Source: Cenococcum geophilum (taxonomy: Eukaryota). Taken from it: DNA of 64,000 bases. This document shows, one piece after another, positions 10,801 through 40,200 of this stretch (position 1 is its first letter; each line of letters begins with the position of its first letter). The position numbers were made by a program, and so were the translations under genes. Below the pieces are notes generated by a model. It was not told where the DNA came from, searched no databases, and saw only the letters and a program-made list of their open reading frames with translations. The DNA is taken from the NCBI GenBank assembly GCA_050273025.1, contig CP158635.1, forward strand, positions 3,286,001-3,350,000. Reading direction: 5' to 3'.

Positions 10801-12979
10801 ATAAAGGTAAAAGGCCAAAGGCTTAAGATTCTTAAAATAAGATAAGAGATAACTAAGATTCTTAAGACTAGATAAGGCACACCTAAGGACCCATAACGGA
10901 CGAAAACCAATAGAGTAGGGTAATAGCTTAGTTTAAAGATATACAAATAAGCTTAGGATAGAGTTTCCCACAGGCATAAGATTCTTAAGACGAGATAAGT
11001 AAGATTTAAGACTTTTAAGACGAGATAAGAATACTTAAGCTTAGTTAAACTAAGGTAGGAGTAAAGCTTAAAATAGAAGTAAGCTAAGGATTAAGAATCC
11101 TATAGGACTAAGATTTCAAGACATAAATAAGGACTATTAATAAGATTAAGAAGCAGAAAGACTTTAAGAATATACTTATAAGATATAAAAAGAAAGAAAC
11201 TATAGAGGAATTTAGAGCGAGAATTACCTTATAGTAAGAATAGAAACTAAATAAGAGGTTTAGTATACTAGGTTATATAAAGGACAAAGCACCTATATAA
11301 AGAATTACTAATAGGCCTAAAACAGGCATACTAAGAGCTAAGTAGCTTACTAAACTGGAATAAAAAGAGAATTTAGGGATCCTAACTAGGTTTAAAGAAC
11401 AATATATAAAAGGCTATAAGTCACATTAAAGGAGCCTTAATTATAATATTAAAAGATCTAGAGAAGCAATTAGAGAACTAAAAAAGTAAGAGGTAAATCT
11501 TAGTACCTGCAAATAAAGTTACAACGCTTAGATTAATATAAGAAAGGTTTAAAATTAAGGATAAGAATAAGCTAAGAGTTAACCTAAAACACTAAGTATA
11601 CTATATATTAGCGTAGATCGCATATATAGATAATATATATAACATATAACTATAGAGTATCTAAAGATAAGAACCGGAAGTACCTAGTAAGGATATATTA
11701 GGTACTAGATAAGGCGAAGTATAGAAATGCTAAGTATATATATAGTTAGCACCTAGTAGAAGTGCAAAGCTAAGGGGATTTAGTACTTTAACTAGGAAGA
11801 TTCCTTATAGAAGAATGCCTAGATGGATAATAGTAGTGGGAATATCTAGAGAACACGTATTTATGGTATATTAAAGATAAAAAGCGAACTAAGTATTGGC
11901 TAAAAGTAGACTAAGTACTAATAGGATTAAGCAGCTAATAATTAGGAAAAGTAGAGGCCTATAAAACTAGAGGGAACTAGTAATAGAGTCTTAGACCTTT
12001 AAAGGAATTTAAGGACGACACCTAAATTTACAAGTTAAGTGGTAAGATTAATAGTTTAAAGTATTAATAGATAGTAAAGTAATAAAGAACTATATCTTAC
12101 TAATAGCAGTTAAAAGAATAGGATTACTATATAGGAAAAAGAAGCACCCTTACCTATTAGTAATAATTTTTAGAAGATCCGATAGCCTACAGGGGAGGTA
12201 TTATTAATCTTAAAATAGGACCTATTTAGTTAACTTTTAAAGGGAGATAAATCGAGATGTCTTTTAATATATTACTATTAGGGAATAATAAGGTAGTATT
12301 AGGAATACCTTAGTTACAGGAATATAATCCAAAGATTAATTAGATTACCGGTTAGGTTAATATTAGGGATACTTAACGGCGCAAGATATAATAATAAGCT
12401 AAGTTAGTATAGTACTAAGTAGGAGCGACCTATAAAGAAATAGAAAAAGGATTAAGTTATATACCAAAGAGATACTATAAGTATGGCAAGAAACTATAGT
12501 TACCAAAAAGTAAAAAGCTATTAGAGTATATAGTATAAGACTATAAGATAGAATTAGAACTAGGAATAAGTTTAAGGTTCTTTCTAATCTACAAGCTTAC
12601 TAAAGAGAAAGGTAGAGCATTAAAAGAGTTTATCTAAGAAAACTTATAAAAGGGATATATTAGACCATCGTAGTTATTAGTAGGTTATCCAGTACTATTT
12701 ATATTAAAGAAGAATAGCAAACTAAGGCTATATATTGACTATAGATAGTTAAACAGCATTACTAGAAAGGATAGGTATTCTTTACCCTTAATTAGCGAAA
12801 TCTAAAATAGGATAGGTAACGTATAAATCTTTATAAAGATAGATCTAAGATAGGCGTACTATTAGATTAGAATTAAGGAAGGCAATAAATAGAAGGCAGC
12901 CTTTAGGTTAAAGGAAGGACTATATAAACTATTAGTTATGCAATTCAGGCTTATAAACGCACTAGCAATATTCTAAAAG

Positions 12980-15900
12980 TGTCACAGTGCTGCAATGAAG
13001 TAGACTGAATAACTACGTTGTGGTATAAAGAGGAGAAGAAGGTAGAAAGGGGGTATTGTATATAAATAGTAGGGCCAGCCGCCAAGTCGCTAGTGGTGGG
13101 CTAGCTAATAGTAGGGAATAGTATAAGACAGTATGAAACAGTATACGTTAGGTTAGTGCCATGACAGTACTCCTCTCCCCTAGACGGTTTGGTCCCTAAA
13201 CTAAATAGATAACTTAAAAATAGGCAGTGTACGGGGTTGCCTATTTTCTACTATAAAGATATTAGTTCCGCTTACCGCCCTTAACTAAGCCAATGGCGAT
13301 TTTTCATACCGGGCATAGAAAATTCTAATTAGTTAGTTTAGTAAGTAAGGTCGGCAGAACTCCATACCGCCACCCAAATCAGTCCGTATAGCGTTTCTTG
13401 GCGAGAATTTGGCCAATTAGACAACTTTAACCGCCGGTTGAAGTTCTATAACATCTTAACCACTATAAATTTTAATGCGGTAATCGGCCGCAACCTTAGC
13501 GTGACTTTTCCTTATCTTATGCCCAGTCTAGGGGTCCTAGCTTCTCAGGGTATTACTTATAAAAGCGCTATACAGCTTATTTATAACCCTTTAGGTCTTC
13601 CTCTAGCTGCCAGGTTATATCCTTATAATATTTCCATTTAATCTTATAAGTTAGGCCCTAGGGGTCTTTGTCATATACATTAAGGATTTTCTTAAACTCC
13701 TATTTGTCTTCTATATTGCCGTTATTATCTCTCTCTACTACTCGTCCTTATACATTACGGCGCTCTACGGTATTAATATTTGCTTAGCTAGGGATCTCTT
13801 TAGCAGCCTAGAGGCGGACCTTAGATATATAAAAGGATTTATTTACTTAGATATAGTCCGGGAGGTCTACTATAACTACCTCTTAGTATACTGCGAGTAC
13901 GGGGTACAGGCCGTCCCATTTATTGTCCTATTTCTTCTTAGGTCTATTTATCTTTATATTTTTTAAGCTAACCATAACTATATTACCTTCGTAAAATAAC
14001 GCGCTCTTATCCCTACAGGTATTAGCATTATCTTTATAGCGTTACTATAAAATCCGGGCTAGGGCCTTAAGCTATATTAATATCCGCTTAAAGCGGTTGG
14101 CTATAGAGTCTGCGCAGAAGAACTCCTTCTTTGCTTATACTAATAGTATTAATAGGTGGGGGCTAGTAGGCTTAATTCCAAGGCAAGGGTTAAAGCTATA
14201 GTTTGTAAAAAAACAGGGAGATGCCTGTGCTCTTATTGACTTGGTTATTTATAGCAAACTTAGTAAGCGGCAGGTAGTTAACCTAGTCATCCTATATAAA
14301 GCTAATAAAAGCACAAAGGTATTTATTTATGGCGGCGTTAATAATTTTAGTTTAGCCGTCCGTTTCTAGGTGCTAGGCTAAGCTTAGTTACAAGGTTGTC
14401 TTAAGGCGTTTACTTAGTTATTGCCAGAAGTCGCTAATAAATTATATACCGCGATTAGAGATAATCGTGCTTAGTATACTATAGAGCTTATATATATTAT
14501 TAACAAAGCTATTAACTAACTCCTCTATTAAGAGTCCTGTTACTAGAACGAGGTGTTACATTTTAGTTAGGCGGTCTATAATAACAAGGATATATTTATA
14601 TGCCTTGCCGTGGCGTTAGTATACTAGTAGTATTATAATATAGTTAATTAAGATATCGGTTTACGGGTAGGTGGGTAATTCTAGTAGCTTTAGGAAACCA
14701 GGTGGGGCAGAACGGGGGGTCTTAGTGCGAAAGTATAGGGTATAGTCTTTAATAAAGGTAGCCGTAAACTGGGAGATTCCTAGCCACCAGTATATTTAGT
14801 TTAAGAGATTAAGAGTCTTAACCCGGCCAGGGTAACTAGCAGGGCCGCTACTATAAGAGTAATAGGTAACTTCTAGGCGGAGGTCTAGGGCGTTAGGGAC
14901 AAAGAGATATTAGCGGAAGTAGATCTGTCTATCAACAATACTATATTCTAACTTATTATAACAAAGTAATTTCCTAATTTTCTTTAGCTAACGGCGAGCT
15001 TTCCAATTATATAGGGCTGCTACTATATCTCTTACAAGTTCGTTCTCCTAGTATCCTAGCCAAATTAACTTGTCTAGTGACTTTTCAGCTATTTTAGGGT
15101 CTAGAGCGGCTATAAACTTCGCGTCATTAGAGTTACAGAACTTATATAGTAATTCTTCTAAGATTATAGGGTTAACTTTCTAGGGCGGTATAATGACTTG
15201 GGCTTAGTGGCGGAGGTGTTCATTATTAGTGTCCTTAGGCCTTATTCCTAGTAGCCAGCTTAGGGCGTTAGGGAGCGTGGCTTTGCTGCTAGGTCTATAT
15301 ATAATTATAAAGTTAAACTATAAAAGGAACTCTACCCACTAAACTTAGCACTAGTTTAGCTGCTTAGTAGTTATAAACGTCTATAGGTTTTTATAGTTGG
15401 TAATAATTTTAAACAGCTCCTCAGTCCCTTATAGCTTAGGACGCCATTCCTCTAAAGCCTTAATAATAGCTAGGAGTTCTTTATTATAGATCTTATAGTT
15501 ATATTTTAGCGCGGAGTACTTTGCGGAGAAAAATGCGACCGGTCTTAATTTTCCGTTATTATTATACTGGGAAAGGACTCCGCCGGAAGCCCAATTTAAT
15601 ACGTCTATCTTTACCACTATTTTCTTTATATAGTTATAGTATGCTAGTACTAGTGCTAAAGTAAAGGCTCCCTTAAGGGCCTTAAACGATTTAGCTTATT
15701 CTAGTCCCTATAGCCATCCGATATCCTTCTTTAGAAGTTTTATTATAAGTATAGCAATAGCAGAGTAGCCTTAGATAAATTATTAGTAGAAGTTTATAAA
15801 GCCAAGAAATTGTTATAGTTCTTTAATTAATATTAGGTCCTTCTATTCCTATAAGGCCTATATCTTCTTAGGGTCTATAGGTATGCTATTAGTTAAGATA

Positions 15901-18900
15901 ATTAAGCTAAGGTATTTTATTTTAGTAGAGTAGAACTTAGACTTATTAATATTAATCTAAAGTCTAGTATTGCTGAGTCTTTAGATAACTTCATTTATAT
16001 ACTTAGTATACTTAGCGCGTGTTTTAGAAAAGATAAGGATGTTATTAAGGTAGGCAGTATAGTAGTTGTTAAGGGCGTTATATAGAATATGGTTAATATA
16101 GTTCTAAAATATAGCGGGTGCGTTATAGAGGCTAAATAGTATAACTAGTATCTTATAGAGTCCGAACCGGGTAATAAATACTATAAGCTATTTATAGCCC
16201 TCTGTAATCCGGATCTGGTTAAACATAGTAATTATATTAAGTTTAGTAAAGTACTTAGTGCTATAAAGTGCGTTAAGTGTCTCGCGGATTAGTAGTAGTA
16301 GGTATTAATTCTTAATAGTAACTATATTTAGGCCTCGGTAGTTATAGTAGATTTATACACCGCCGCCAGGCTTAGCAGCGAGAAGGAGTGGTGCGGCAGC
16401 TAGTAAGGTTAATTTACAGATAAAACCCTTATCCAGCATCTTATTAATCCACTTCTTTACACACCTAAATTTAGTAGGTAAGAGTGGTCTATTTTTATAG
16501 TACGGGGCCTAGTTTCCAGGGGTAATCTTAATTTTATAGTCCCATAGTTAGTAAGGGGGCAGCTTATCTATATTCTTAGGGAGGAAGTGCTTAATATATT
16601 TACTAAACTCCTTTAGTAGGCGTTATAGAATATCTTCGCGGGTTAATCCTGGTTTGCCTTTTAGGAATTTTTTAATATTGGTGTTAACTATCTTCCGACA
16701 TAAAAGCTCGGGTTTAGTTTTTAGATTTATCTTAAGGAAGTCATAAAAATAGGGGGGGAGCGCTTTACGGGCTTCCTTTATTATATAGTCGCCTTTCACT
16801 AGCCAGCGGAAAGACCTTTTTAATAGGTTCGGTACTTCTATTAGGCCTATAGGCAGCTCTTTAAGCAGCTATCAGTACTTATCTTATTTAACTAGTTCTA
16901 CTAACTCCGCTATATAGATCCTTATTACCTTTACGTCTTTTTATTTATAGAACTGGGTAAAATTAATAGCACAGGTGTATTTAATATTGTCTAGGTTAGG
17001 GCGTATCTAGCTCTCTAGTGCTACAGCTGGGCTAATATAGCTTAGTTAGCCTAGGGGGGCAAAAACAAGGCGGCGGCTCTGTACGGTACGCGTAGGAGAC
17101 AGGTATAAGGTTAGGCGTTACGGTGGCGCGGTTTCTATCATTTAGGTCTTAGTAGTTCTATAGCTAGTCCTTACTATAACGCGAGCTGTAGTGTGTATAT
17201 ATGGTATATAGCTTAGTTTTAGGTATTAGGCTAGGCGGCCAAGGTTTAAATAGTGCCTAGGTTAGGGTTAGTTTTTTAGTAGTGGCGGTATAAAGCGGAC
17301 CTTCTTCCTTAGTCTCGGCAGGGCTAGCTAGCCTATTATTTTGGTCTTAAGTACTAGGTTAGTCCAGTCTTCTACTATCTTATTTCTTTACAGCTATACG
17401 GGCTCCCCTTTATTAGGAACGTCTTTTACTATTAGGGCTTTATATATAGTCCTAGGCACTAGGCTTAGTAGTGCTAAGTGTCTATATAGGGCGTCCCTGC
17501 TAACGTCGGCTATCCCCCACAGGAGGTAGTGCCTAGAGTAGTAGTCTAAGTTAAAGCGGATCTTGAGTTTCCTAAAGCTAGGACGGGGCTCGTGCTTTTA
17601 AAGCTAGGGTATACCTAGGATAATTAGGGTAGCGGGCGAGAGTTTAGTAATAAAAAAGAGTATGGCTTTAGTATAGAGGCCGATTGATATTTAGGTGGTA
17701 AAGTAGTCCATAATAAGCGAAGTTAGGATACTATCTGCGAGGCATAGTAGCCTAGGTGCCAGCAGCTTCTTAGTTATAACATTATACTTTTTTATAATAG
17801 ACTCTGCGTCGGTAAATGCTATTACAGTACTACCGGAGTCTACTAGGCTTACTATATTAATATAAACTTGGGGGTATAGGTTACGTAATAAGGAGAGTTA
17901 GGTTTAAATAAGGATTAATTTCTTATTACTGTTTGCTAATCTAAGATTAAATAGCAGTTTACTAATAGAAAGAACTAATTAATCTAGTAATAGGGACCTA
18001 ATCTTCTTATCTTCCTCCTTATATAGTTTAGACCCTTAGGCGTAACTTAGTCTAAAGGTTTACCTTTTAATAACTAGGGTACGGGGCTGTTTTGGCAAGG
18101 CGGTCTAGTATCTATCTAGCTAGCGGTGTCTGTCTCTGTTTTAGTTAGGGTATAGGAAGACAATACCTTACCAACGACGTAGCCGTGTTCGTATTCGCTA
18201 GCGCGAAGTCGCTAATACTAGGCGTTGTTAACGGGTTGGGCTCCTATATAGGGTATAGTTTAGAGTAACTAAGCCGTAGGGTTAAAGGGGGGGGGTTATC
18301 CGCTGCGGCTATAATAGGCTCCGCGGTTGCCGTGTCTATAATAGACTCTACGGTCGCCGCGTCCGCGGTTATTTATTTGCGTTGTTTAATAGGGTGGCAT
18401 TAGGACTAGGTTTGCTATCTTAGCGGGGTTATAGGCATCCTTCTAGTGGCTAGGCAGGCTATAGGTAAGGCATAGTCTATTATTAACGCGGCGCTTACGC
18501 TCCGTGTTTAAGATTCTATTAAGGTCTATAGGTTCTTTAGTTACTACTAGGGTTAGGGTTAATATAGGGGCAGGGGCTTAGGTAGGTAGGCGGTAGTTAG
18601 TGTTCTTCTTAAGGTTAGCTTGGTGTGTATAGTTTATAAGGTTTTTAGTAAACATATCTATCTGCTTACTCTAACCTATATAGTTACTATTATTAATTTT
18701 ATAGGCTAGTCCAAGTACCAGCTCTTCTATCTTTAGAGAGATGAACTTTTAAAGTAGGTCTACCTTCTATTTATCTGTCTTTTTAGCGCAGATTATTAGC
18801 TTATTAAGCTCTCCCTTCTAGAACTAGTAATTACGCTCGCCTTAAGAGAAATAGTTAAGCTTATTCTTTATAACCTAGGTTATATTAAGGACCTCATAAT

Positions 18901-19895
18901 AGGCAGTAAGGTCTTTAAGCATATCTTCCTTAGTAGGCCATTTCCACGCAGATATATTGTTTAGGTTCTTATATATAAGCTCTAGGCCCTACTTAATAAA
19001 CTTATAGACCTTATCCTTTAGCATGTCCGAGATATAAAGGATCTAGGACTAAACTATGTTAAAGTAGTCCTAGTCCCGGTTAAAGACTCCCTTAATCTTA
19101 ATATACTAGGTCTTAAAATTAGCTTATCGTTCTAGCAGGGTGCCTTTTCCGCTAAATATTAGCGGGTCTTTAGATCTCCGTTTTTTCTTCTAGGTTACTA
19201 CCGTTATTATAGGGGTTAATTATTTTAGAACGGTAATAGTCTCTACCTAGGAGTTAATAGTTCCTATCTAGGAAGTAATAAGGGTACTAAGGTTTTTATT
19301 AGCTTTTTTATTGGTAGTATTTATGTTATATATGCACTATAGTCCTACTTTAATGTTGTTAAGGAACTTATTAGTATAGTTAATAAGAGTAAGGTAAGCT
19401 TTGCTAGGCTTAAAGGTCTTAGGGTATAGTAGGGAGCGGCGGATTATCTACGCAATATTAGGGTATATCTTTATAAATAGGTCTACAAAAACGTTATAGG
19501 GGTTCTAGGTTTCGGCTATTTTGGCGTCATTAGTGTCGCCTATCTAAGCGCTAGGTAAAAACTAAGGATTATTTTAGAACTATGCTAGGGATATATTAGT
19601 TTTAGCAGAGGCGCGCACAGGTTGCGATTGCTCTAGGGTAAAGGTTAATTAGCTAGGGTATAGGGAATTAGTAATCACAATAGGGCGTAAATTAAAGATA
19701 CCATAAACTGTTACAGTGCTGTAATAAAGTAGACTAAATAACTACGTTATAGTATAAAGAGGGGAAGAAGGTAGAAAGGGGGTATTGTATATAAATAGTA
19801 GGGCCGGCCGCTAAGTCGCTAGTAGTAGGCCAGCCAATAATAGGGAATAGTACGAGATAGTATAAAACAGTATGCGTTAGGTCAGTGCCGTGACA
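12980..19895 (-). mobile_element. Ty3/Gypsy chromovirus-type element B (RIP-mutated), inserted in the RT of element A
   Basis: 187-bp LTRs 12980-13166 and 19709-19895 (TG..CA); TSD aaaag; PPT ggggagaggagtac on -; RNase H remnant (GGVLSQ...LRPVAFFS...YNKELLAIIKALEEWRP, 15429-15617); chromodomain remnant ~13530-13730. Confidence 0.94.
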
Positions 19896-20477: not shown

Positions 20478-20785
20478 CGGCATACTGCCGTATTTAATAA
20501 TGCGGTGCGGCATACTGCTGTATTTAATAATGCGATGCAGCATACTGCCGCATACTGCTATATTCAACAACGCACTGCCGCATACTGCTGTATTCAACAA
20601 CGCAGTGCAGCTAACTGCCGTATTTAACAATGCAGTGCAGCTAATTGCGCATTTTGCACTTAATGCGCAATTAATATATAATGCCCTCCTCGTTCATTCT
20701 GTACATAATGCCTTCCTCGTGCATTCTGTACATAATGCCTTCCTCGTGCATTCTGTACATAATGCCCTCCTCGCGCATTCTATAT
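20478..20785 (+). repeat. 30-bp and 27-bp minisatellite arrays
   Basis: Degenerate gcatactgccgtatttaataatgcggtgcg units followed by cattctgtacataatgccttcctcgtg units. Confidence 0.8.
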
Positions 20786-20885
20786 ATCTTGCTCTTCCTA
20801 CGCACTTAATAGTATTTGCTTGGTTTATATAGTTGGTGCAAAATTATATTATTTTAGATAATTTAATATATAGCGACGGTGCTCT

Positions 20886-20997
20886 TCTACCTGCCTACCT
20901 ACCGACCTACCTGCCTGCCTGCCTACCTGCCTGCCTGCCTGCCTACCTGCCTGCCTGCCTACCTACCTACCTACCTGCCTACCTGCCTGCCTGCTTG

Positions 20998-21028
<31 letters not shown>

Positions 21029-21150
21029 ATCTACCTACCTACCTACCTACCTACCTGCCTACCCGCCTGCCTGCCTGCCTGCTTGCCTACCCGTCCGCCC
21101 GTCTGTCTGTCTATCTGTCTGTCTGTCTATCTGTCTGTCTGTCTGTCTAT
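20886..21150 (+). repeat. (CCTG/CCTA)n then (CTGT)n tetranucleotide microsatellite
   Basis: Directly visible. Confidence 0.95.
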
Positions 21151-21259
21151 ACCCACCCATCTGTGCCTACCTATCTATGCCTACCCGTCTATGTTACCTT
21201 AATTCGATCGATCGATCGAATCGTTTATCGTGTTCGCTGGCTGGTCGTTCGAACGGTTG

Positions 21260-21460
21260 TCGTGTGGCTCTGGCGACGGTCGTGTGGCGATGACGACGGT
21301 CGTCTAGCTCTGGCGACGGTCGTCTGGCTCTGACGGTCGTCCAGCTCTGGCGACGGTCATCTGGCTCCGGCGACGGTCGTCTAGCTCTGACGACGGTCGT
21401 CTGGCTCTGACGACGGTCGTCTGGCTCTGACGGTCGTCTAGCTCCGGCGACGGTCGTCTG
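21260..21460 (+). repeat. 17-20-bp minisatellite (ctggctctg[gc]gacggtcgt)
   Basis: About ten degenerate copies visible. Confidence 0.85.
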
Positions 21461-21599
21461 CTGGCTGTCGTTCTGGTGTCTTCCTAGGTAGGGAGGATGT
21501 AAGGAAGGGTAAAAAATGAGGTGGCTACCTAGGTGTATATAGGGGGTATACTTGGCAGAGGCACGTGTAGAGGCTATCGGGAATATAGCGGGGACCCGA

Positions 21600-22090
21600 T
21601 GCGGAGCTTCGTGTAAAGCCTCCGTACGCAGAGCTTCGCGCAGAGCCTTGTGCAGAGCCTCTGTACGCAGAGCTTTATGTAGAGCCTTGTGTAGAGCTTT
21701 GTGCAGAGCTTCGCGTAGAGCTTCGTGCAGAGCTTCGTGTAGAGCTTCGTGCAGAGCTTCGTGTAGAGCTTCGTGCAGAGCTTCGTGTAGAGCTTCGTGC
21801 AGAGCTTCGTGCAGAGCTTCGTGCAGAACTTCGTGTAGAACTTCGTGCAGAGCTTCGTGCAGAGCTTCGTGCAGAACTTCGTGTAGAACTTCGTGCAGAG
21901 CTTCGTGCAGAGCTTCGTGCAGAGCTTCGTGTAGAACTTCGTGCAGAGCTTCGTGCAGAGCTTCGTGTAGAACTTCGTGCAGAGCTTCGTGCAGAGCTTC
22001 GTGCAGAACTTCGTGTAGAACTTCGTGTAGAACTTCGTGCAGAGCTTCGTGTAGAGCTTTGTGCAGAACTTCGTGCAGAGCTTCGTACAG
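21600..22090 (+). repeat. 12-bp minisatellite gYagaRcttcgt, about 40 copies
   Basis: Directly visible; the same unit recurs at ~61147-61200. Confidence 0.95.
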
Positions 22091-24249
22091 CATTTAATTT
22101 TACTTTTCTGCCATTTTAGCATTTTCTAGCATTTAGCAGCTAAATGCTAATACTTAATTATAAATGCAGCTAAATGCTAGTACTTAGTAATAAATGCCGC
22201 ATTTAGCTGCTAAATGCTAGAAAATGCTAAAATGGCAGAAAAGTAAAATCAGATGCTGGTAAATTTTTTCCTGACGTAGAACTAGAGACGGTTATAGAAA
22301 CAAATATATTAGACTTTATGCTAGGGGCATACTTTATATAGAAACATTAAGATAGATAGCACCTAATAGTATACTATAGTCGAAAGATAACACTATTAAA
22401 GTTAAACTATAACATCTATAACAAGGAGTTATTAGTTATAGTTATAGCGTTAAAGGAATAAAGAGTATTCTTATAAGGTACAGAAAAACTATTTATAGTT
22501 AAAACGGATTATAAAAACCTAATAGGATTCCTAATAATAAAGGAGCTTAACCAAAGATAGGTTAGATAGGTAGAGATACTTATAGAATACTATTTTAAGA
22601 TTTAGTACACTAAGGGTACAGATAATATATAAGCAGATGCTCTAAGCCGAAAAGCTAAACTATAAAATAACGAAAAGCTATTAGGGGCTTTACTGTAAAA
22701 AGACACAGATGGATTAATTAGGTATAATTATCCAAAAATTATAATAACTTAAGAGGAACTAAACAGAGTTTATAAGTTACTAGAAAGCTTTTAGGTATAA
22801 AAGATCTTTAAGGTATAGCTAGAAGAATAGTTAGAATATCTAGGAGAAGAAATACTATATAAACATAGAGAGGTAAAGTATATCCTAAATAGTATAGCAA
22901 AACACTTTATGGAAGATTTCTATAAGGGATTAATTTAAGGATATAACGGAGCCATAGGCTTAGTGTTAAGACTTTAAGAGGAGTATATTATTAATGGAAT
23001 CTAGAGCTTAACGCGGAAAGTTACTAAGGAATATCTAGATTGCTAAAGAAATAAACTAATAAGACATAAGCCATATAGAGGGCTATAACCTATTAAAATA
23101 CCAGAGAGACTATAGGAGGTTATATTATAGAACTTTATTATTAAGTTACTAAAGTTAAAAAACCCTATTACCAGATAAGATTATAACGCGATCTTAGTAA
23201 TAGTAAATAAGCTTATAAAGTAGGGATACTTTATAGTATATATAGAAGAAATATCAGCAGAAGATATCGCTAGAATCTATATTAAGGAAGTGTTTATAAG
23301 ATATAGAGTACTAAGTAAAATTATATCGGATAGAGATCTAAGATTCATAGTAGTATTTTAGGAAGTATTCTTAGTGGAGTAAGGAGTTAGAGTAGTAACT
23401 TCTACTATATATTATCCGCAGACAGACGGTTAAATAGAAAGACTAAATTAAATACTAGAGCAGTATCTAAGATACTATATTAATTACGCACAGAATAATT
23501 AGGTATTATTATTACTAGTTATATAGTTTATATATAACGCAATACCACAAGAAAAAATAGACATATTACTATTTAAGGCAAATTATAGATATAAGCTAAG
23601 AATATCATTATTACTACGGCAAGTAAAGAAAATAAGTAGTATAGTTAAAGAAAGAATAAAGATACTAATAAATCTTTATATAGACCTTATAGAATTAATA
23701 AAGAAAGTATAGGAAAGAATAAAAAAGTACTATAATGCTAAGAGATCTAAGGGACTAGATCTTAAGGAGGGAGATAAAGTATAGCTACTATATAAAAATT
23801 TTAAGAGTTAACAACTAAGTAAGAAGTTAAACTATATTAGACTAGGACCTTTTAAAATTAAGTAAAAGATTTTACTAGTTACGTTTAAATTAAACCTACT
23901 AGCTAAAATAAAAATCTACCCTATATAGTATATCGCGATACTAAAACTAGTATATAGGAATATTAAGCCACCGGTTTATAAAGCAGACACGTATAAAGGT
24001 TAAAAAGAGGATAAATAGTAAGTTTTAAAGATTATTAGCTATAAGGATATTAATAATAAAATATAGTATAAGATAAAGTAAATAGGCTATAATAAGACTA
24101 CCTAGAAACTACTAGAGAACCTAAAAAACGCTATAGGAAAGGTATAGAAGTATTAGAAGAGATTAGGTTAGGTAATATTAATAAAAAAGGATCGCAAAAA
24201 AATAAGTCACCTAAGGGGGACTTAAGAAGAGTGGTTACTAAACTACTTA

Positions 24250-24803
24250 GATCTATTTCCTTCTTAGTTAAAAAAGAGTCCGTTTTTTTATTACTAAGTT
24301 TCTATAAACCCTATTTTATAAGCTTCTACTCCTTAAAATAAACCTTTTTATAAACCTTTTTAAGACGGATTGGTTAAGTAGACGCCGCAAGATAAGACTT
24401 AAGAGCCTATTACTAAGTATTAGCAACCTCCTATTTTACGTTATAAGAACGGCGTAACTCTACTAGAGTAATAGATAGTTTATTATCTAGCTGTGTAGCA
24501 GCAGATTAAATATAAAACCCTAAGATAAATTAATTAGGGAACTAGACGACTATTAAAAATAATAAGTTATATATATTTAGCATTAGAAATAGAGCGAATA
24601 TTATAGGATAAATAAATATTTACTTTAATGCACTTTAAATAAAAGGACGGTTATTATAAAGATGGGTTCGCCAACGTAATATAAACTAACCCTTCTTTTA
24701 AATAGCAAGAATATAGAGATAGTATAATCTCACTAAGAGACAATATCGCAGCAATAGTGCAAACACGACGAGCGGTTAAAGAAAAAGGAATTATTTTAGG
24801 TAT
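24250..24803 (-). pseudogene. Antisense accessory ORF of Gypsy A with a putative six-cysteine Zn-cluster-like motif
   Basis: Reads ..AILSLSEIILSLYSCYLKEGLVYITLANPSL**PSFYLKCIKVNIYLSYNIRS; reversing RIP changes (TAT>TGT etc.) gives C-x2-C-x6-C-x13-C-x2-C-x8-C. Confidence 0.55.
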
Positions 24804-25822
24804 AATAAGTAACGATATTAACTAAATTAATTAGACGGATATTACACCTCTAGTAAACAACTTAGAGATATTAGGGATCTTTAAGGACGAAGATAAAGAG
24901 GAGGGAGATAATGTTATAGACGCTTTAAGTACAATATTATGACTACTTAGAGAAGAGTTAAAAGAAGCTAGTTAGTTAATTTAGGTATAGTCTAGGATAG
25001 AACTAATAGAGCTATATAACGAGGAATAGTAACTAAGGTCACGTAATATAATCTATATAATATATAGGATCTATATAATCCGTAACAAAGCAGATAGAGT
25101 ATACGTATATTATGTATAAGAAGAATTTTATAGAAGTACGGTTGTGTATTTAAGGACCCTTAGTCCCTACCTAAATAGTTCCTTCCTTATAGTAATTCTT
25201 AAAATATAATTAGAGTTAATTTATTAGGCAACCACTCTACTAGTTATTATTACGTTGTTAACTTTAATTTACATTACCTATACACCTAGCCTAATAACAA
25301 GCCTATTGTAATACTTGCTATAAGGTTCCGTTATAAGATCTATTAAAACGTAGAATTTTACTTAACTTTCTCTTTCTTTTAGAGATAATTTACTACTATA
25401 CGGCAAAGCATATTATTTAAAGTAGCGTTATTACAAATAATAGAACTAAGCTTTTATATAATTCTATAGTCTTAAAGCACTAAAAAAAGAGTAGTAAATT
25501 GCTCTTCTCTATTATAGTTTACTACTGTATAAAGGGTAAGGAGTGCTTTAATAAGCTTCTCCTAGTATCGGTTAATAAAGTGCGCGTAAATCCTAAGAAG
25601 AAGAAGCTAGTTTAAAGAGGTCTAAATATTAAGCAAAATATATATACTTAATAATGCTAATTAATGCTTCTTTCATACAATATCTTTTTAGAATTACTAT
25701 AATTTCTTAATCTTCTTTATAACCTTAGAGTGTGCTATAATAATCTAGCCTTCTACTTCTAGATTTAGAACTTTTTAAAAAACTTAGGTATTAAGCTATT
25801 ATGTTTAACCTATAGATATTAC

Positions 25823-28800
25823 TGTCGGGAATGAGGCAAGCGGTCGTCACGTGTTGTCACGTGTCGCCGCGGCACTAGCGTGGTGAGGAACCTTAGGTTT
25901 CTTACCTACCCCCTAATTCTAAACAATAAGCTTTATAACTAACATTCACTATATCTACTCAAGTAGCATTAGTGAGTTACCCTATAACATTAATACTAAT
26001 TAGTAGTTAAATACACAGTTAACTATAGAGTAGCTAGGTTATTAATAGAAGAGATAGTCTTATATAGGGGTGCTATATGCGCTTATATAGAATGGATCCC
26101 GGTAATACTATACTACCTTAAACTTACAGAAAACTAGTAATAGAAGTGTTACTAAGTACTAAGAGATACTAAGTTGCGTTTATTACGCAGAATAATTACG
26201 TTTACAAAGATTTAGTCAAGTACTTTAGGTTAAAAGTATTACTAAACCTAAGGTCCTAAGTTAACGTCCGAAACGCGTCGAACAATATCTTAAATTGCCT
26301 ACCTTTGGACAGTAAACCTACGAGATCCTATAAAACCGAAAATCCTGCCTACCTTTAACGTATAATACCTTGTCGATTCTACCTACTATAGTATTAACCT
26401 ATCTAAAGAAGTATAAGAAAGATATTAACCTAAAGATATAGGATAGAGCTATAACTAACTTTATAACCGCTAAGCAATAGGACCTAAATAGATTCTTAGT
26501 ATACTATATAAAACACTATAAAAATAGCGAATATAATAATACCGCGCTATAGTATTATATAAAGGAGGACTTTATTAAATAGACAAAGGAAACATAGGTT
26601 TCTATAAATAAAGATATTATATAGGACTTCCGTAACTTCCTTTAGGAGTATAGAGTATTTGTCCCTATAGATGGGGGTAGTATTAGGGACAACATTTAGG
26701 AACACGTTATTAATATAAAGGAAGAGTATAAATGGACTCTATAAGAGATTAAGCACTAACTACGCACTATAAAGAAGCTTAAATTATAATAGAACCTAAG
26801 TAATATACTACTAAAGACGCGTTCTAACTCTATTACTCTAGGTATGAGTTCTAACATTCCATATCTATCGCCTCTACCTTTATCTTTAACTCCCCTATAT
26901 TAACCAGCTTAACCCATAGCCTTAATTAACAACCCCTAATAAGCATAAGATCCCCTTATTTCACGGTCTAATAACCTTTAAACTCCGCCGACTAGATCTA
27001 TATTACTATTATAGCCTATAATACAATATAGCTAAACACTAATTAGAGGCACCTTAAAAATGCTTATAGAGCTTATAAAGCTCTATTTAGAATAGGAGAA
27101 GAAGTTTAGCAAAGAACTATATAATATCCTTAATTCAAAGTTACGTATCTTCTATAACTATTACTAAAAGGTTAGACTAGAACCCAATTAATACCATATT
27201 ACTTATTTAGTTATACTTAAGGGCCGAGCTAGTACCTTTTATTATAATCGTTTGGCAGAAAAAGGATATAATTTTAACCGAATAATATATAAAATAAGAT
27301 GCCACTTTAAAATAGAGGAGAATAAGCAGCAGTATATGTTGGAGTAGAGAGAGACTACCTTCTTAAGAATTATTGCTATAAACCTAGGTGCCTTTTAACT
27401 TAATTATCTTTAAAAGCTCTTTAATTAACTCTAGATAATTTAGCGTAGTTTATCCAAATTATATTAAAAGGACTTCAGCCTACGCAATTAAGTTATTAGC
27501 GTATATTAAGGTGTTAAAAAATATAACCTTACTCTCTTTAACCCTATAAGTACTTATAAAGAAGTATATACTTAATTAAGATCCTCTATCAGCACCGCCC
27601 TATACTCTTAAAAAGTATAGCAATTTAACGCCTAACTCTAACCTACTTTAATTAACCCGGCTAACTAATATAATTATAACTAGACTAATTAAACATATAG
27701 TGGTTATAGTAGGGGATATAATAGAGGGTATAATTAACGTCAACTATAAAGCAATTATAGAGGTCCTTGTGGAGGTTCATTTCGCAATAATTAGCAGAAG
27801 AAATGCTATATTTATAAGAAGCCAAATTACTAGTTAATTAGATACCCCCTTAATAAATAAAAGGAGGCATATAATAAGTTTCGCTAGAGCGTATAAAATG
27901 TTAGAAACTAAGAAGTTATTATAGCCTACTTTTAAAGCTTCCTAATTTAATATAAAGGCGAAGAAGATCTTAAGGGTAAGATTAACGAGGCTAAACAGCT
28001 CCTTATAGATATGGAAATTAAGGACTACTTTCTTAACTAATACTTTACTAAGTATAGTAAGGTAAATAGCGCACAAACTGTTACTATCCTTAATAATTAA
28101 TCTACGCTCTATTCTATTATAAGGTTAGATATCTTTAATAAGCTAAAGAAAAGTTCCGCGTTCTCCTTTAATAACAGATACTCAGCGAACGTCTTTTATA
28201 GTATTATACTAGATATTAGAGCTGTAGGAGTATCTATAGTAGAAGAACCTTAAGTCTAAGCTCTTTAGCAGCTTAATAGTTCTGTCTAAATTAACTAATT
28301 AACGGCAGGCTAATATATAATTCGCTTTAATAAGGGTACTATAATCTCTCTTAGCATAATTAAGGTCTAAACCCCGTTAGGATATATTACTTTCCATATT
28401 ATTCCCACAAATACCCTATTCCTATTCTGCATCCAAAATATAGATAAATTAGGCGTTAAGCTTAATAACCTTAAGAATATACTTGTTTAGGGAGATAATT
28501 GGGTGCCCGTTATACGCAAGTAGGGTCACCCTTAATTGCTCCTTTAACAGCCAAAAAGGAGCGTTACTTAGAGTCACTTAACCAAGTCAGAGCTACGTTA
28601 ACTATATCGTCATTTTAGCTACCTATCCATTTACTAACTGCTTAGGGTTCTTTAATAAGCAGGTTATAAAGTTAAGGTTAAGGCAATTAAACATCTTATA
28701 AAGTACTACTATTACTGCTAAATAAACTAGAAGTCCCCCAGCCGATTCAAGTTTACCCTTAAAGACGACTACAACTTTAACTTCTATATTATTATAGATG

Positions 28801-31800
28801 TTATATATCTTAGCGGCAAGCTAGTACTCTAAGTTATTAACTTCTTAACCTCCTTCTAAGCCGCACGCTTTTTAAAAGATATATTAGCTAAGAACGCATA
28901 GGATACTCTTTAATTATACTAGATTAATGTCTACCTAGAACCCCCTAATTAAATCGTTTATAATATAAAAAAGAACTTCTTATCTATAGAGTTTTAATAA
29001 TAGGTAAAGGCAATAACAATTAAGGTTAAGGAAGTCCCCGTTAAGGTATATAATAGTATTAAAAAGGTAGAACGATACTATACGCCATTACGCCGCGCAT
29101 ATAAGATTATTTCTTTAGAACTAGAGGGTGCTAGCGAAGAGCTTATCTTATAGATAGCTATTAAAGCTATTAACGATACCACTAGCCTAGATAGGCTCGT
29201 ACCTACGTTACTAGTCTTTAGCGCCTACCTTTAAATAACTAACAATTCTTTACTATCTCCCTCTATTATATAACGAGCTAAGGCAATTTATAAGGCAATA
29301 AAGGAGGTATGACGTCTCTACGCCACGCGCTAGGTTAACGACGCACTAGGAATAAGAAATAGCCTAAATACCTTAACTACGCTTAATCTGCCACTCTAAT
29401 CTAAGATATGCATATAGCGTAAAAAGGGAGAATGGTTAGGCCTATATAAACTTATTACAATTAATAGTTAGACTTATACTCTTTAGATACCCTATAGACC
29501 TACTTAATTTTATTTAACTGTTATTAAGCCTTACTATAAAGATAATAGTTTTAAGCCTTTATAGGATACCCTAGAAGATACCCTAGAAGATGCCCTAGAG
29601 GAGAACTACAATTAATATACCCTAGAAGGTGACTACGACCCTAATATAACTGTAGTAGATACGCCGCAACTATAACGCGGTAGAGGTCGCCTAAAGGGAT
29701 TACAAAACCGCTAATATCTTATTAATTTCAAAGAGTAACTTGTTACCGCCATTAAGAATAGAGTTAAGCTATTAATGGCCTTTATAATAGCTAAAGAGAA
29801 GGCTAACTTTAAGCTTGCAAAACAGCTCTAAAAGGAAGGCTATATTATAACTTTAGGAGCTCCTTTCTAAGCATCTAATAAGCAGGAGATTAACGGTCTT
29901 ATTATAAGAGGAGTCTTTAAGTTTAAGAAGTATAACCCTACTAAGTTTAATAGGGTTCGTATATTTAAGTTAAAAATAGTTAATAAGATTAAAGGCAAAG
30001 CTACTAATACCCCATTTAAGAAGTTAAGGCTAGTTATTTAAGGTTATAACAATAATAGTAAGGAAGTAATTCTTATATAATCCCCTATAATTTAATAAGC
30101 TAGTTAGCGAGTTATTATTGCGCTAGCTTCTTCCTTAATAAAGAATAGAATGGCGGTTTATTTATAAGATATTACTTAAGCCTATACCTAATTAGAGATA
30201 CGCCTTTAGCGCTTAATACTAGTATACCTTCTAGAGCAAATTCGCCACTAATATCCCGAAGATATAATTATAGTTATACTTAAGCCACTATATAGAATCG
30301 CAGAGGTAGGAACTTATTAGTGGGCTACTTATAGCAAGCACTATAAAGAAAAGCTTTTAATAACTACTTCTATATTTAATTTCTACTTCCTCATTATAGC
30401 TATAGGAACTCTATTTAGAATCGTCGGCATATAAATAGATAATATAATTATCTTAGGAGATAACCAATTCTTAGCTCTTAAAGAAGATAAGCTAGTAAAA
30501 GTAAACCTTATAGCAAAGCCAAAGGAAAGACTTAATTTAATAACACCATTACTCTTTAATAGATGCATTATTTCCCTAAATAAGGATTCCATTACCCTAC
30601 GCCAGAAAGGTTAAGGTAAGAAGATTAACGTTATTAACGTTAATTCTCTAAAGTAAGGATACGTAGAGTAACGCGCTTATAGAGCTTATATAGCTTCTAT
30701 CTATTAACCTAAAGCTTTCTTTAATCTCTTTATTACCGCCTAATACTAGGAACTAACTAAGGATAATATTTTTAACCTAAATAAGCGTCTTTCCTAGTAA
30801 ATAAACCATCTTAATTGGGGACTACTCTATATGCCTATTAATCTTCCTACCGCTAAGTTATTTATATTTATTAATAAATCGTTTATAAATAATAAAGATT
30901 TTAGCTTTTAGCTAGGATATAAAATTATTATAGTAAATAAATCTACTAGAGAAAATAACTTTATAATCTACGGTAATCTTATTTATTAGAGCTTAACTAA
31001 GAGCAAACGCGTTACTTAAAGTATTTTAGCGTTAGAGATATATAGAATAGTTAGTGGAGTTAATATAGCAATTACAATTAGAACTACCCTTAAGATAATT
31101 ATAAATTAACTTAAACTTCCTATTATCCCTATAATTATATATACCAACTTATATTCCCTCTATAAGTATTTAGTTAAGCTTAGTACCACAAAGGAGAAGC
31201 GCCTTATAATTAATATTATAGCACTTTAGTAGTCCTATAAGCGTTAAAAACTCTTTAAGATCTAATGGATTAATAGTTAAGATAACCCAACAGATATAAT
31301 AACGAAGGTAAACCTAAATAAGGCACTAGAGACGTTTATTAATATAAATACTCTATATATATAAGTTAAAGGTTAGGTTAAAAGGGAAATTTAGAGAAGT
31401 TAAGATTTTATAGAACTTTAACCGCCGGTTAAAGTTATCTAATTAGTTAGATTCTTGCTAAGAGCACTATACCTAATTAATTTAGGTGGCGGTATGGAGT
31501 TCTACTAATACTATTTATTAAGCTGGCCAATTAGGATTTTCTATCCCCGGGATAGAAAATTACTATTGGCTTGGCTAAGAGCGGTAAGCGGAACTGATAT
31601 CTTCGCACGAACCTATATATCTACCTACGCTACCTTTTCCCCTTTATTTCTTCTTCTTCTTTTTCTTAGCTTTATATCTTTATATAGTAGTAATCTATAA
31701 GTGTATATAGATAGCAACTATAAAAGAAGAGTTGCCAGTGTTGGGAATAAGGCAAGCGGTCGTCACGTGTCGTCACGTGTTGCCGCGGCACTAGCGTAGT

Positions 31801-31911
31801 AAGGAACCTTAGGTTCCTCACCCACCCCCTAATTCTAAACAATAAGCTTTGCAACTAACATTCACTATGTCTACTCAAGTAGCATTAGTGAGTTACCCTA
31901 TAACACTAATA
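25823..31911 (+). mobile_element. Full-length Ty1/Copia element (RIP-mutated)
   Basis: 173-bp LTRs 25823-25995 and 31739-31911; TSD attac; CCHC remnant ~27805, integrase ~28570-29230, then RT ~29880-30800 and RNase H (..WINS*DNPTDIITK ~31265), i.e. IN before RT; purine tract aaaagaagag before the 3' LTR. Confidence 0.93.
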
Positions 31912-32384
31912 ATTACTTTAGTATAGAGCTGTTTTAGTTAATTAAGCGCTACCAACTAAACTTAGCCTAGAGTTAACTTAACCTTAATTCTATACTTACT
32001 CTTAAGATAAGATTAGAAATTATTACTAGCTAGAGCACTATACGGTGGATCCGTACAGTATTTATAGTAAAAAATGCGGTTTTTACCCCAGAATTCTAGC
32101 TCTAAGCTAGCCTAGGGTAGACAAGCGTGCTCCGATATTTTAACAGCTAAGCGCTTTCTAGTCGTTTTCAACTTCGTTTTAATTAATTCCTAGGTTAATA
32201 AAGGCGCAAGAAAAGATGAATCTGCCTCAGAAGCCATTTGTTATACGAATTTATAGACAATAGAAAATTTTTGCGGGTTATTGGTAATAGCGTCAATCAA
32301 TATTGATCTTATCGATACTTATCGATAACGATATTGATTAGTAAGATTGATAATAAAATTATTGACAACCACGCTGATCCTTGC

Positions 32385-37299: not shown

Positions 37300-40200
37300 T
37301 GTTAAAATAGGTATAGTTTAATAATTATTTTTATTGAGCATACATTTCTAAGAGGGTGGGGAAGCGATAATTATATAGAAGAGTATCAGAGGTTCCACCT
37401 GACAAGAAGCAATATACGTTAACTAGAACCCACTTTAACAGCCCCTTTTAAGCTGAATATAGGTAACAATATAAAGGTCATAAGAGACGTTAATATTTCT
37501 CTAAACCTAAAGCATCTCTAAATGCATAGAATACATCTTTTAGCAGCGCCTTAGTAAAACCATTAGCTATTTATCAACTTATTTATATATATTTTAGCTT
37601 AATATCTCCGTCTACAACCTTCTCCCAAATGAAGTAATATTAGAGAGTAATATGCTTAGTTTAAGCGTGAAACTTAGGGTCTTTTGTAAGAGTAATAGTA
37701 CCTTAATTATCGGCGTAAATAATTATTACGTAAGGGGATTCGTTAGTTAGAGATAGTTCTTAAAGGAGTTATTATAACTAAATAGCTTCTTTTACTGCAA
37801 CTGTCTATACTATATACTCTGCTTTATAGGTTAAGAGTGCCACCATAAGTTAGCGCTTTAAGGACTAGCTAATTGCACTGCTTCTAATATTAAACATAAA
37901 TCCTAATATTAATCTTTAAGTTTCTAAGTTATCTGCCTAGCTAAAGTCTATAAACCCCTAAAGCGCTTATATTTCTCCTTAGAGGATAAGTTAGAGGTCA
38001 AGTATACCGCGTAAGTAGGAAAGTATTTAAAGAATAGCTTATATATAAGACTTATTAGAATTAGAAGCAAAGCGACTAATAAGGGAGATAGCGAAGGCAA
38101 TATTAGGTTAAGTACTAAGTATAGCATATATTAGGGTGCTAACTAGCGATTAGTATTAAGTCTTAAACGTAGAGTTAGCCTAATAATCTGCCGCTATTAG
38201 TTAAAGATAAGAGGTTTCTATTAGCGTAAGGTAAGGGGAACAGTTCTAAAGACTAGTGCTATAAATAGCCTCTTTAAGGTAAGAGAATTGGCTAAGCCGT
38301 AGTTTACGGAGTTATCGATCTTAAGTTACTTTTATACTAAGGTAATAAGTAATAGGGCCTAGATCAGTTATACTAAAGCGTCCGCTAAGTTAAGCTTTAA
38401 TAATCTTAATATTAATAATATCTAGTCTAATAAATAGGAGGTTGTTAATATAGACTGCGATATATATAGAACCTTTAGTGAAGACTAAAGAGTTAGAGTT
38501 AAGGGGTTTAAAATTAATATTTATAAGGAACTCTAAGAGCGTTTAATGCTAAACTTAAGGCGACTGTTTAAGACCGTAAAGTGCTTTATTTAGACGACAA
38601 ACCCGTCTAGTTTTATCATTAAAACCTTTAGGTTAATTAATGTAGATCTCCTCCTTAACGCTTCCGTAAAGGAAAGCGGTCTTAATATCTATTTGTTTAA
38701 TCTTAAGGTCTTATACAGCTATAATGGTAAAGAGCGCTTTATAGCTTATAGGTTTTATAATAAACGCGAAGGTCTTATTAAAGTTAACCCTAGCTTATTA
38801 TTTATAACCCTTTACTACCTACCTTACCTTATATTATATAATCCTTCCTTTACTATCCCGCTTATGCTTAAAAACCTATTAGGTATTAAGAACTTTATAA
38901 TTAAGAGGTTAGTTAACAAGTATCTAGGTATTATTTGCTTTATAAGAGCTAATTTCGTCTTTACTAGCGGAGTACTATTTATTATTATTAACGTTAAGGG
39001 TAGATTATTTCTATAACCTTGGCTCATAAGGTTTAGCTATAGGGGAGTTACTAAGTATAGCGTAAAGGTGTTTAAAGGAAGGGGTCGAGAAGTAGGCAAG
39101 CGCTAAGAATGCTGTAATAGGCGGGTTTTCTCTAATATTAACAGAATTGCGATACTTAAGAGGTAGTTAAGGCCTATTAGTAGCTACTAGACGTTTTAAC
39201 TTCCGTAGGGGTGTCTTATTAGTAGTAAGGCGCTTTAATTTTTAAGCTTTCTTAAGGAGCTGTTTCTCTTCTTAATGCTGTTTATATTAGGTAGCGTAAT
39301 TAGGTAGAGCTTCTTTTTCCTTAAACTAAGTATTAATATCTAGAGTATCGGAGTTATATTTAATATATTATTCTTAAATTTAACACTTATTGCTACTGGG
39401 AACTATTAAAACAGTCTCTTAAAAGTGGATAGCTAAGGCACGTATAAGCCGTCCTATCTCTTTATCTCGAATTTAAATAATATATTTACCCTTAAAGCTA
39501 ACAAGGTTCCCTAATCTTGCCTTCTTATCTATATAAGAGCTGAACTTCTTTTAATTACTGGCCCTGTACCAAATATCGCACCTAAAGGTATAAATCTAGG
39601 AGTAATTAAAGACTTCGCCTTGCTCTATTTTGTAGGGGGTCTATATTTCTAATAATTTAATAGGGAGAATATTTTATATAAAGTTAGCGTACTTAACTGC
39701 TTCTGGCTAGAAGTTCTTAGGAAGTAAGCAATTATTTATAAAGGTAAAGGCTCGGTTATATATCGTGTGATTAAGTCGTTTTAAGGCTCTATTTTGTTGT
39801 TAACTCTCTAGGGTTAAGTATAAGAACTAAATTCCCTTATTTGCAAGTTCTAGCTAAAAAGCATATTTAAGATATTCTCCTCCGCCATTACTATATAGCC
39901 GTAAGATAAGACTTCCTCGTTATTTAACCTTTGCTTAATATTATTGAAAATAGAACGGGACTTTAGCCTTATACTTTATTAGGTAGACTTTACTTATTTT
40001 ATTAACTCCATCTTAGAAAGTAATAAAATATCTTAATCTATTATAGCCAGCTACTTTTATAGGTCCTTTAATATTAGAGAATATAACTTCATAAGGCTTA
40101 GTATTGTGGTTAATAAGAGAATCCCAATATATGACATCGTGTATTCTGCCACGTAGGTAGGCTTTATAGGTACAGTTATAAAGGTCTAGTAAGTGAGTGA

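Follow-up and report, generated by a model that had tools for sequence, protein, structure and literature searches.

How did two long terminal repeat (LTR) retrotransposons of different superfamilies come to carry the same non-coding block at the same place, and what might this block do there? The question is raised by a stretch of 64,000 nt of the Cenococcum geophilum genome (contig CP158635.1 of assembly GCA_050273025.1, positions 3,286,001 to 3,350,000, hereafter called the window), in which a Ty1/Copia element of GalEa type on the forward strand and a Ty3/Gypsy element on the reverse strand, termed Gypsy B, have in common a hairpin-rich cassette of about 220 nt. As a rule, each LTR superfamily is regarded as evolving on its own, and recombination as taking place among close relatives only. 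An initial annotation of the window had aligned 31399-31604 with the reverse complement of 13255-13460, and had proposed that the block is a structured cis-acting RNA exchanged between superfamilies.

The cassette in two superfamilies and its exchange

Self-comparison of the window matched 31387-31603 of the Copia with 13472-13256 of Gypsy B on the other strand at 78.9% identity over 218 nt (E 3e-45), and BLASTN with 31399-31604 as the query returned 13460-13256 at 79.1% over 206 nt (E 4.6e-45). In a MAFFT alignment of the two copies, similarity was lost sharply at both edges of the block. The proposed alignment was thus reproduced by all three comparisons, and the accompanying statement that the two elements share no other sequence held at E<=1e-10, at which threshold the cassette pair was the sole match linking 12976-19895 and 25823-31911. 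A covariance model of the 3' part of the block, the core, was built from 31 copies (model R1); when run on the 64 kb, it found two copies only, scoring 148.5 bits in Gypsy B and 140 bits in the Copia, with the next-best place at 17.5 bits. Both copies lie in element sense, between the pol stop and the polypurine tract (PPT) with its 3' LTR, as had been described, and begin 23-44 nt past the stop. In the Copia, pol ends with TAA at 31362-31364, the block starts at 31387, and a purine run (31722-31731) precedes the 3' LTR, which starts at 31739. The corresponding positions in Gypsy B, read on the minus strand, are 13519-13517 for the pol stop, 13472 for the start of the block, 13181-13170 for the purine run and 13166 for the start of the LTR.

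Copies beyond the window were searched for in metagenome contigs of two samples by means of an exact 19-mer common to both window copies (31485-31503), and the 29 loci obtained were sorted by BLAST with both window copies plus 400-nt flanks. There were no matches of the 19-mer in viral contigs and none in prokaryote genome contigs. At all 29 loci, the block was positioned after a Gypsy pol. Thirteen loci belong to the Gypsy-B family (87-92% identity including flanks) and make up, with the window copy, the 14 sequences of lineage a. Twelve others are related Gypsy elements, 71-75% identical with flanks, of which 10 form lineage b, marked by an 11-nt deletion in the linker of the cassette, and two (L012 and L002) form lineage c; in L012, Pfam identified reverse transcriptase, RNase H and integrase upstream of the block. 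The four loci of lineage d (L013, L014, L019 and L026) have only the 3' 125-130 nt of the block, that is the core, in common with the others, and here the core is antisense to pol and downstream of it, the Pfam matches of L013 (reverse transcriptase, RNase H, integrase) and L014 (RNase H) falling on the other strand. A 30th copy, without the exact 19-mer, was contained in L020 after a different Gypsy pol (RNase H, Integrase_H2C2 and SH3_Tf2-1 by Pfam). This copy, lineage e, has its 5' unit in sense and its core in antisense, with an A4G7 purine run about 75 nt further on. The sense orientation that the initial annotation reported for both window copies therefore does not extend to all lineages, as the 125-nt core is inverted in two Gypsy lineages (d and e), while the 5' unit is in sense wherever present.

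All 32 copies, 2 from the window and 30 from the metagenome contigs, closely follow the pol of their LTR element and represent at least 4 independent sequence contexts, and none was found elsewhere or free-standing. Counted by backbone, the carriers are a single Ty1/Copia of GalEa type and five or more Ty3/Gypsy elements; the Ty3/Gypsy domain order of reverse transcriptase, RNase H and integrase was recovered by Pfam in Gypsy B, L012, L013 and L020. The copies lie between pol and the PPT or LTR, with the four of lineage d showing the after-pol position only, no PPT or LTR being located there. The pattern of an ordinary miniature inverted-repeat transposable element (MITE), with copies at random positions carrying their own target-site duplications (TSDs), had been named as the outcome that would speak against a cis-acting module, and it was not seen in this sample of 19-mer loci and window copies.

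Since repeat-induced point mutation (RIP) makes transitions uninformative, divergence between copies was counted in transversions and gaps only. Between the Copia copy and that of Gypsy L012 there were 21 transitions, 0 transversions and 0 gaps in 219 nt, and the RIP products were divided 10 to 11 between the two copies. These two cassettes were probably identical before RIP, and this pair bears out the exchange between LTR superfamilies that had been proposed. From lineages a and b, the Copia copy differs by 14-15 transversions. The pol of lineage c is separated from that of lineage b by 5 transversions in 533 nt, and the module of lineage c from that of lineage b by 10 transversions in 208 nt. 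L012 thus has a Copia-type module on a pol that is nearly that of lineage b, and the cassette has therefore been exchanged between backbones, and recently. The simplest reading, compatible with a first transfer in either direction, is that L012 is a lineage-b backbone with an imported Copia-type module. Beyond the module, no homology was found between the Copia spacer and L012 (score 29, null 34 +/- 5.4). At the 3' end of pol, lineages a and b are separated by 62 transversions in 527 nt, but in the 3' untranslated region (UTR) and LTR by only 12 in 515 nt. This is the opposite of what is expected of coding and non-coding sequence, and entire 3' ends, UTR and LTR together, have therefore been exchanged between Gypsy lineages, the breakpoint lying close to the pol stop. 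For any pair of lineages, the 123 nt of the core differ by only 1-6 transversions, and this holds also for lineage d, the flanks of which defy alignment.

Two DNA runs (X1 and X5), an RNA run (X21, considered below) and metatranscriptome contigs (X16) were compared with 31100-31950. The DNA runs gave thousands of pieces, and because the listed ones are only about 100-170 nt long, their depth does not equal copy number. DNA depth peaked on both perfect hairpins of the cassette (for example 31419-31447), with loose ends at hairpin borders; the contig loose ends fell at 31413, 31463, 31529 and 31571. Peaks and loose ends together indicate that the hairpin blocks occur in more contexts than were recovered. 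Many reads had C or G at positions where the window has T or A, consistent with RIP-mutated window copies. Among the listed pieces, none spans the junction of Copia and cassette, and there was no well-supported loose end at 31387; the reads hint, though they do not show, that most members of the Copia family carry the cassette. Many DNA contigs of both organisms match only from 31704 onward (purine tract and LTR; 31704-31738), with different sequence before, and relatives of the window Copia with another spacer therefore exist. A contig of organism B that joins 31385 to 31529 via 31 other letters (side 22, depth 8) was too weak and was not used.

Some further features were observed around the cassette in individual lineages. 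In L012 and L002, an extra spacer follows the cassette before the purine tract is reached; its length is about 85 nt in L012 and greater in L002, and it is not present in lineage b. In L013 (3100-6019, + strand), L014 and L026, sequence of at least 3 kb that is common to lineage d extends beyond the inverted core, with long open stretches in one frame (for example L013 3962-4369 and 5570-5938) and no Pfam match; these stretches could be an extra open reading frame (ORF) after pol. Past the pol stop and some 40 nt ahead of the cassette, lineages a and b have another hairpin (ACCACC.../...GGTGGT type; in Gypsy B, about 13500-13460), which has been destroyed in lineage c and has no counterpart in the Copia.

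Anatomy, folding and conservation

The non-coding cassette consists of a 65-nt 5' unit, a variable linker and the 125-nt core (Table 1). Hairpin 1 of the Copia copy reads AACTTTAACC-GCC-GGTTAAAGTT (31414-31436), and its 3-nt loop is GCC in some lineages and the complement GGC in others. The hairpin that caps the core is also perfect, with 11-12 bp, and both perfect palindromes are centred on CCGG-type motifs (CCGG or CCCGG) kept in all lineages. These two stems, at 31414-31436 and 31535-31560, were already named in the initial annotation together with the difference between GCC and GGC loops, and both the stems and the difference are real. Its long-range pair CTAATTGGCCAG/CTGGCCAATTAG is formed only when copies are combined; all 14 copies of lineage a have C.A at two of the paired positions.

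After RIP changes were undone, the lineage consensuses folded with z scores of -2.5 to -5.2 relative to dinucleotide shuffles on both strands, in line with the earlier view that the sequence is structured. In these consensuses the core folds as a single long imperfect hairpin; when this model was applied to 31 natural sequences, 93.0% of cells were paired, compared with 30-45% with slid partners. The antisense strand of the window copies scores 28-33 bits with R1 (32.7 bits for the Copia), which shows that the core is nearly its own reverse complement. RNAalifold offered an alternative in which the 5' arm of hairpin 1 pairs with the 19-mer, whose sequence was fixed by the search, rather than with its own partner.

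Conservation is uneven along the cassette. Among lineages a, b and c, the linker has 8 transversions and the only indel (11 nt) in 52 nt, while hairpin 1 and the outer arm have 2 transversions in 37 nt and the core past the 19-mer has 4 in 101 nt, two of them being a compensatory G:C to C:G pair. That the hairpins are better conserved than the linker is one pattern that speaks for constraint. At the lineage level, pairing is kept by this one G:C to C:G double transversion, which falls in hairpin 3, as well as by two or three series of transitions. The swap is the only compensatory change that is not of the RIP-type transition kind; changes from G:C to A:U are expected without selection, because both arms of a palindrome share the same RIP-mutable context.

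The cassette was also compared with known kinds of sequence. A coding extension of pol was rejected, as lineage b has the frame-shifting 11-nt indel and there are stops in every frame; the frame of the module relative to pol differs between the Copia and Gypsy B. The unrecognised ribozyme considered in the initial annotation found no counterpart, as no Rfam family matches, hammerhead and other ribozymes included: with both window copies at E<=10 nothing reached the gathering score (the best was RsaA with 21.6 bits, for a gathering score of 50), and four less mutated loci (L016, L007, L012 and L026, 23,922 nt in total) had 0 matches at E<=1. Neither the window nor any of the 29 loci contains a tRNA predicted by ARAGORN, and an origin of the cassette from a tRNA or a short interspersed nuclear element (SINE) was rejected, there being no tRNA match by ARAGORN or Rfam. 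The 19-mer may loosely resemble the start of a tRNA. Cyclisation through pairing with the element's own 5' UTR was rejected as well, since duplex energies had z of about -0.6 and 11/40 and 12/40 shuffles were equal or better.

Table 1. Positions of the cassette copies, their parts and their host elements in the window.
Feature	Position	Strand	Details	Evidence
Cassette copy in Copia	31387..31604	+	5' unit, linker, core	BLAST, alignment, 219-nt comparison with L012
Cassette copy in Gypsy B	13256..13472	-		BLAST, alignment; R1 148.5 bits at 13244-13382
5' unit (Copia copy)	31399..31463	+	outer-stem arm; perfect 10-bp hairpin 1 (31414-31436, loop GCC); CTAATT-containing tail	sequence, alignment
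Core (Copia copy)	31485..31604	+	long imperfect hairpin, from 19-mer 31485-31503, capped by perfect hairpin 3 (31535-31560)	folds, R1
Host 1, complete GalEa-type Ty1/Copia	25823..31911	+	6089 bp	LTRs, TSD, hairpin-site motif, degraded GalEa motifs
Host 2, complete Ty3/Gypsy (Gypsy B)	12976..19895	-		LTRs, TSD, Pfam RVT_1, RT_RNaseH, Integrase_H2C2
Extra 10-bp hairpin of Gypsy B	13216..13245	-	between cassette and purine tract; not in Copia	sequence

Host elements and neighbouring repeats

The Copia is bounded by LTRs of 173 bp (25823-25995 and 31739-31911) and by the TSD ATTAC (25818-25822 and 31912-31916). Directly after its 5' LTR, at 25996-26004, stands the hairpin-site motif CTAATTAGT, and a tRNA primer site is absent. 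Fungal GalEa elements are described as lacking a tRNA primer site and having instead a 9-nt CHSeq1 (CTGATCAGT or CTAATTAGT) adjoining the 5' LTR, with a 5-bp target duplication, a length of about 6.1 kb and the motifs KSRLVI, QTDD, CQPEA and ADxxTK (PMC5445492). Frame 2 of the window Copia contains, in order, KLRLVI, XIDN, YXPKA and TDIITK, each 1-2 RIP-type transitions away from the respective GalEa motif. By its CHSeq1, TSD, length and motifs, as read from the sequence, the window Copia is a member of the fungal GalEa clade. CHSeq2, the partner of CHSeq1 in the hairpin site, was not clearly identified in the window Copia, and Pfam gave no match for this element, because its RIP damage is so heavy. 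A second GalEa Copia copy occupies window positions 1-1687 on the minus strand, is 92% identical to 25819-27507 and is truncated by the window start. Its hairpin-site motif, CTAATCAGT, is less mutated than that at 25996-26004.

Gypsy B has LTRs of 191 bp (12976-13166 and 19705-19895) and the TSD CTTTT (12971-12975 and 19896-19900). Pfam matched RVT_1, RT_RNaseH and Integrase_H2C2 in a single frame, and the C-terminal tail of its pol reads as chromodomain-like. The stem of its extra hairpin is traced by a chance match to mir-26 in the Rfam search (13217-13248). Gypsy B is inserted within the reverse transcriptase of Gypsy A, a larger Ty3/Gypsy element on the plus strand (8798-25335) with 424-bp LTRs (8798-9221 and 24912-25335): the RVT_1 match of Gypsy A breaks off shortly before 12976, and RNase H is picked up again near 22270. 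Between these two domains, Gypsy A contains a block of tandem and inverted repeats (20359-22258). It includes a palindrome of 171 nt (22088-22258), which gave a weak R1 match of about 16 bits on both strands, and a repetitive minus-strand ORF (21194-22093) whose weak matches to NNH2 and DUF445 resemble low-complexity artefacts. Elsewhere in the window, direct repeats of 142 bp at 37300-37441 and 42830-42971, 92% identical and 5.5 kb apart, are probably the LTRs of another element.

Readings of the cassette

The reading to which we incline, tentatively and with somewhat less than even confidence, is that the cassette is a strand-symmetric hairpin cis-element which moves by recombination among the after-pol spacers of LTR elements of one RIP-affected fungus and has a putative function. 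The exchange could have taken place by template switching of reverse transcriptase between co-packaged RNAs. The spacer would be copied soon after the first strand transfer, stable hairpins would make the reverse transcriptase pause and so aid switching, and the cassette, once common to both elements, would supply homology for further exchange. Inverted cores are not explained by plain sense-to-sense switching, and point to palindrome-mediated inversion or events at the DNA level. Since inversion leaves the hairpins nearly unchanged, we take the folded hairpins as the feature that is kept. The cassette would then act in replication as folded RNA, or as minus-strand DNA, and its most plausible roles would be in pairing or packaging of genomic RNA, or as a pause and transfer site for reverse transcriptase. 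The antisense core of two lineages argues against a strand-specific RNA such as a ribozyme, and a strand-specific catalytic or protein-coding element is unlikely.

Several observations weigh against a functional hairpin element. Covariation, which the initial annotation had named as a source of support, was not above shuffled controls, and nearly all variation is of RIP type. Double-sided pair changes numbered 6, compared with 5.9 +/- 1.1 in shuffles (303 of 500 shuffles reach 6), and the percentage of pairing and the covariation score (0.182 vs 0.167) were marginally above shuffles (8/500 and 4/500, respectively), an excess that by the caveat of the covariation tool is common among related unstructured sequences. 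About six lineage-level changes break pairs. Within-lineage variation is uninformative on selection because all copies seen are RIP-degraded, and the invariance of the 19-mer among loci is meaningless because the loci were chosen by it. A core found either way round, a hairpin-1 loop that is likewise inverted (GGC vs GCC) and sub-blocks in rearranged order are outcomes that mutation yields at palindromes free of function. The cassette of L002 has been lost from mid-core onward, so that its 3' half is gone, and the R1 search found no cassette copy in Gypsy A of the same window. The dimerization sites of Ty3, Ty1 and HIV-1 are placed at the RNA 5' end (PMC11381356). RNA evidence was very scarce, with 21 reads from the 12% of X21 that was read and 7 pieces in X16, and these pieces were hairpin sub-blocks joined to other sequence, in part resembling Gypsy LTR. 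The RNA data show neither expression of the cassette nor silence, and say nothing on habitat.

The most serious rival, which we consider quite possible, is that the cassette is a functionless passenger: a foldback-type palindromic repeat, either MITE-like or filler from break repair or template switching, that lies in insertion-tolerant sites and was homogenised and flipped by palindrome recombination. The cassette resembles MITEs and foldback elements in its size, its long imperfect palindrome and its occurrence in both orientations; the core is a 125-nt imperfect palindrome found either way round, and the relative orientation of 5' unit and core varies. Covariation at the control level fits a passenger, as do the four contig loose ends, which place sub-blocks in further contexts. 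Unlike MITEs and foldback elements, the cassette has no free-standing copy in 32 and no consistent terminal repeats or target duplications. Terminal inverted repeats and TSDs are not consistent in lineages a, b and c or in the Copia, and although the core of lineage d is surrounded by a 10-11-nt direct repeat, half of this repeat overlaps cassette sequence conserved elsewhere, so it may not be a target duplication. The position cuts both ways, since none of the 32 copies is away from the after-pol stretch of LTR elements, but if only non-coding sites are tolerated, four independent after-pol contexts would be no great improbability, at about 0.06 by our estimate. What a passenger leaves unexplained is that the hairpins are far better conserved than the linker of the same cassette.

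A further proposal, which we find rather doubtful, goes beyond a cis-element moved by recombination: the cassette would be a transferable strand-symmetric RNA hairpin module that Gypsy and GalEa Copia elements gain mutually via a common step, and would also serve as a homology patch for recombination between superfamilies. The common step could be a host RNA-binding factor, or RNA-RNA pairing for riding in the particles of the other family, and such a module would be the retrotransposon counterpart of mobile 3' UTR elements of RNA viruses. The constitutive transport element of simian type D retroviruses and the s2m element of RNA viruses are structured and lie between the last gene and the 3' end. 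They work via host factors, and can thus be moved between or be common to unrelated viruses, and they are strand-specific. The cassette is analogous to them in position; no sequence or Rfam relation was found.

It is improbable, in our view, that the cassette works as a DNA-level element, with the perfect palindromes as binding sites for dimeric proteins of the host or of the element, serving as enhancer, insulator or chromatin mark in either orientation. An orientation-independent function would suit the flipped core, and the CCGG-type centres of both palindromes are retained in all lineages; CGG repeats are known targets of fungal zinc-cluster factors. Dyad symmetry as well as RNA pairing is preserved in the swap from G:C to C:G. 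However, the long imperfect stem outside the palindromes is also about 90% paired, which a short binding site does not need. A strand-specific RNA of a known kind, whether a self-cleaving ribozyme, the head of a tRNA-derived SINE or a second site for binding the primer tRNA, is very improbable in view of the blank Rfam and ARAGORN searches, the antisense core of two lineages and a pairing of 5' UTR and module no better than in shuffles, even though Ty3 requires the 3' UTR portion of a bipartite primer-binding site (PMC11381356).

The nearest described system to the favoured hairpin cis-element is the Conserved Hairpin Site (CHS, 'extended CHS') of GalEa elements, which is suspected to be necessary for transposition (Donnart et al. 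2017, PMC5445492) and, according to the same paper, is common to distant families inside one species. Like the cassette, it is a conserved non-coding hairpin of fungal Copia, and the window Copia itself has the CHS motif CTAATTAGT. Unlike the cassette, CHS is described as lying at the position of the primer-binding site after the 5' LTR, with arms of 9 nt (PMC5445492), whereas the cassette follows pol, is 220 nt long, is common to Gypsy elements and has an invertible core. For Ty3, it was reported that a portion of the 3' UTR is indispensable even to the smallest form able to transpose, and that the RNA dimerises through a short palindrome at the tip of a hairpin (Andrzejewska-Romanowska et al. 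2024, PMC11381356). In that account, the dimer site is in the 5' region and the 3' element is a box complementary to a tRNA; neither was found here, the window and loci having offered no tRNA gene for a comparison. Chimeric LTR retrotransposons that arose via template switching have been described (Sabot and Schulman 2007, PMC1950507; Tan et al. 2016, PMC5131818), and strand switching of reverse transcriptase between co-packaged RNAs is the accepted route by which foreign sequence enters LTR elements. The chimeras presented in these two papers are complex insertions or captured mRNAs, which sets them apart from a short hairpin cassette that recurs at one position in both superfamilies. A word-matched search of the open-access literature found no report of a non-coding cassette common to Copia and Gypsy.

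What the window and its related loci present is a discrete non-coding cassette at the same place in a Copia and several Gypsy backbones, with two copies identical apart from RIP-type changes. If the hairpins are functional, they would mark a step of replication or host interaction that is common to both superfamilies. If they are passengers, they would show palindromes seeding mosaic elements in a repeat-dominated genome, and would also provide a sequence marker for tracing recombination among families.

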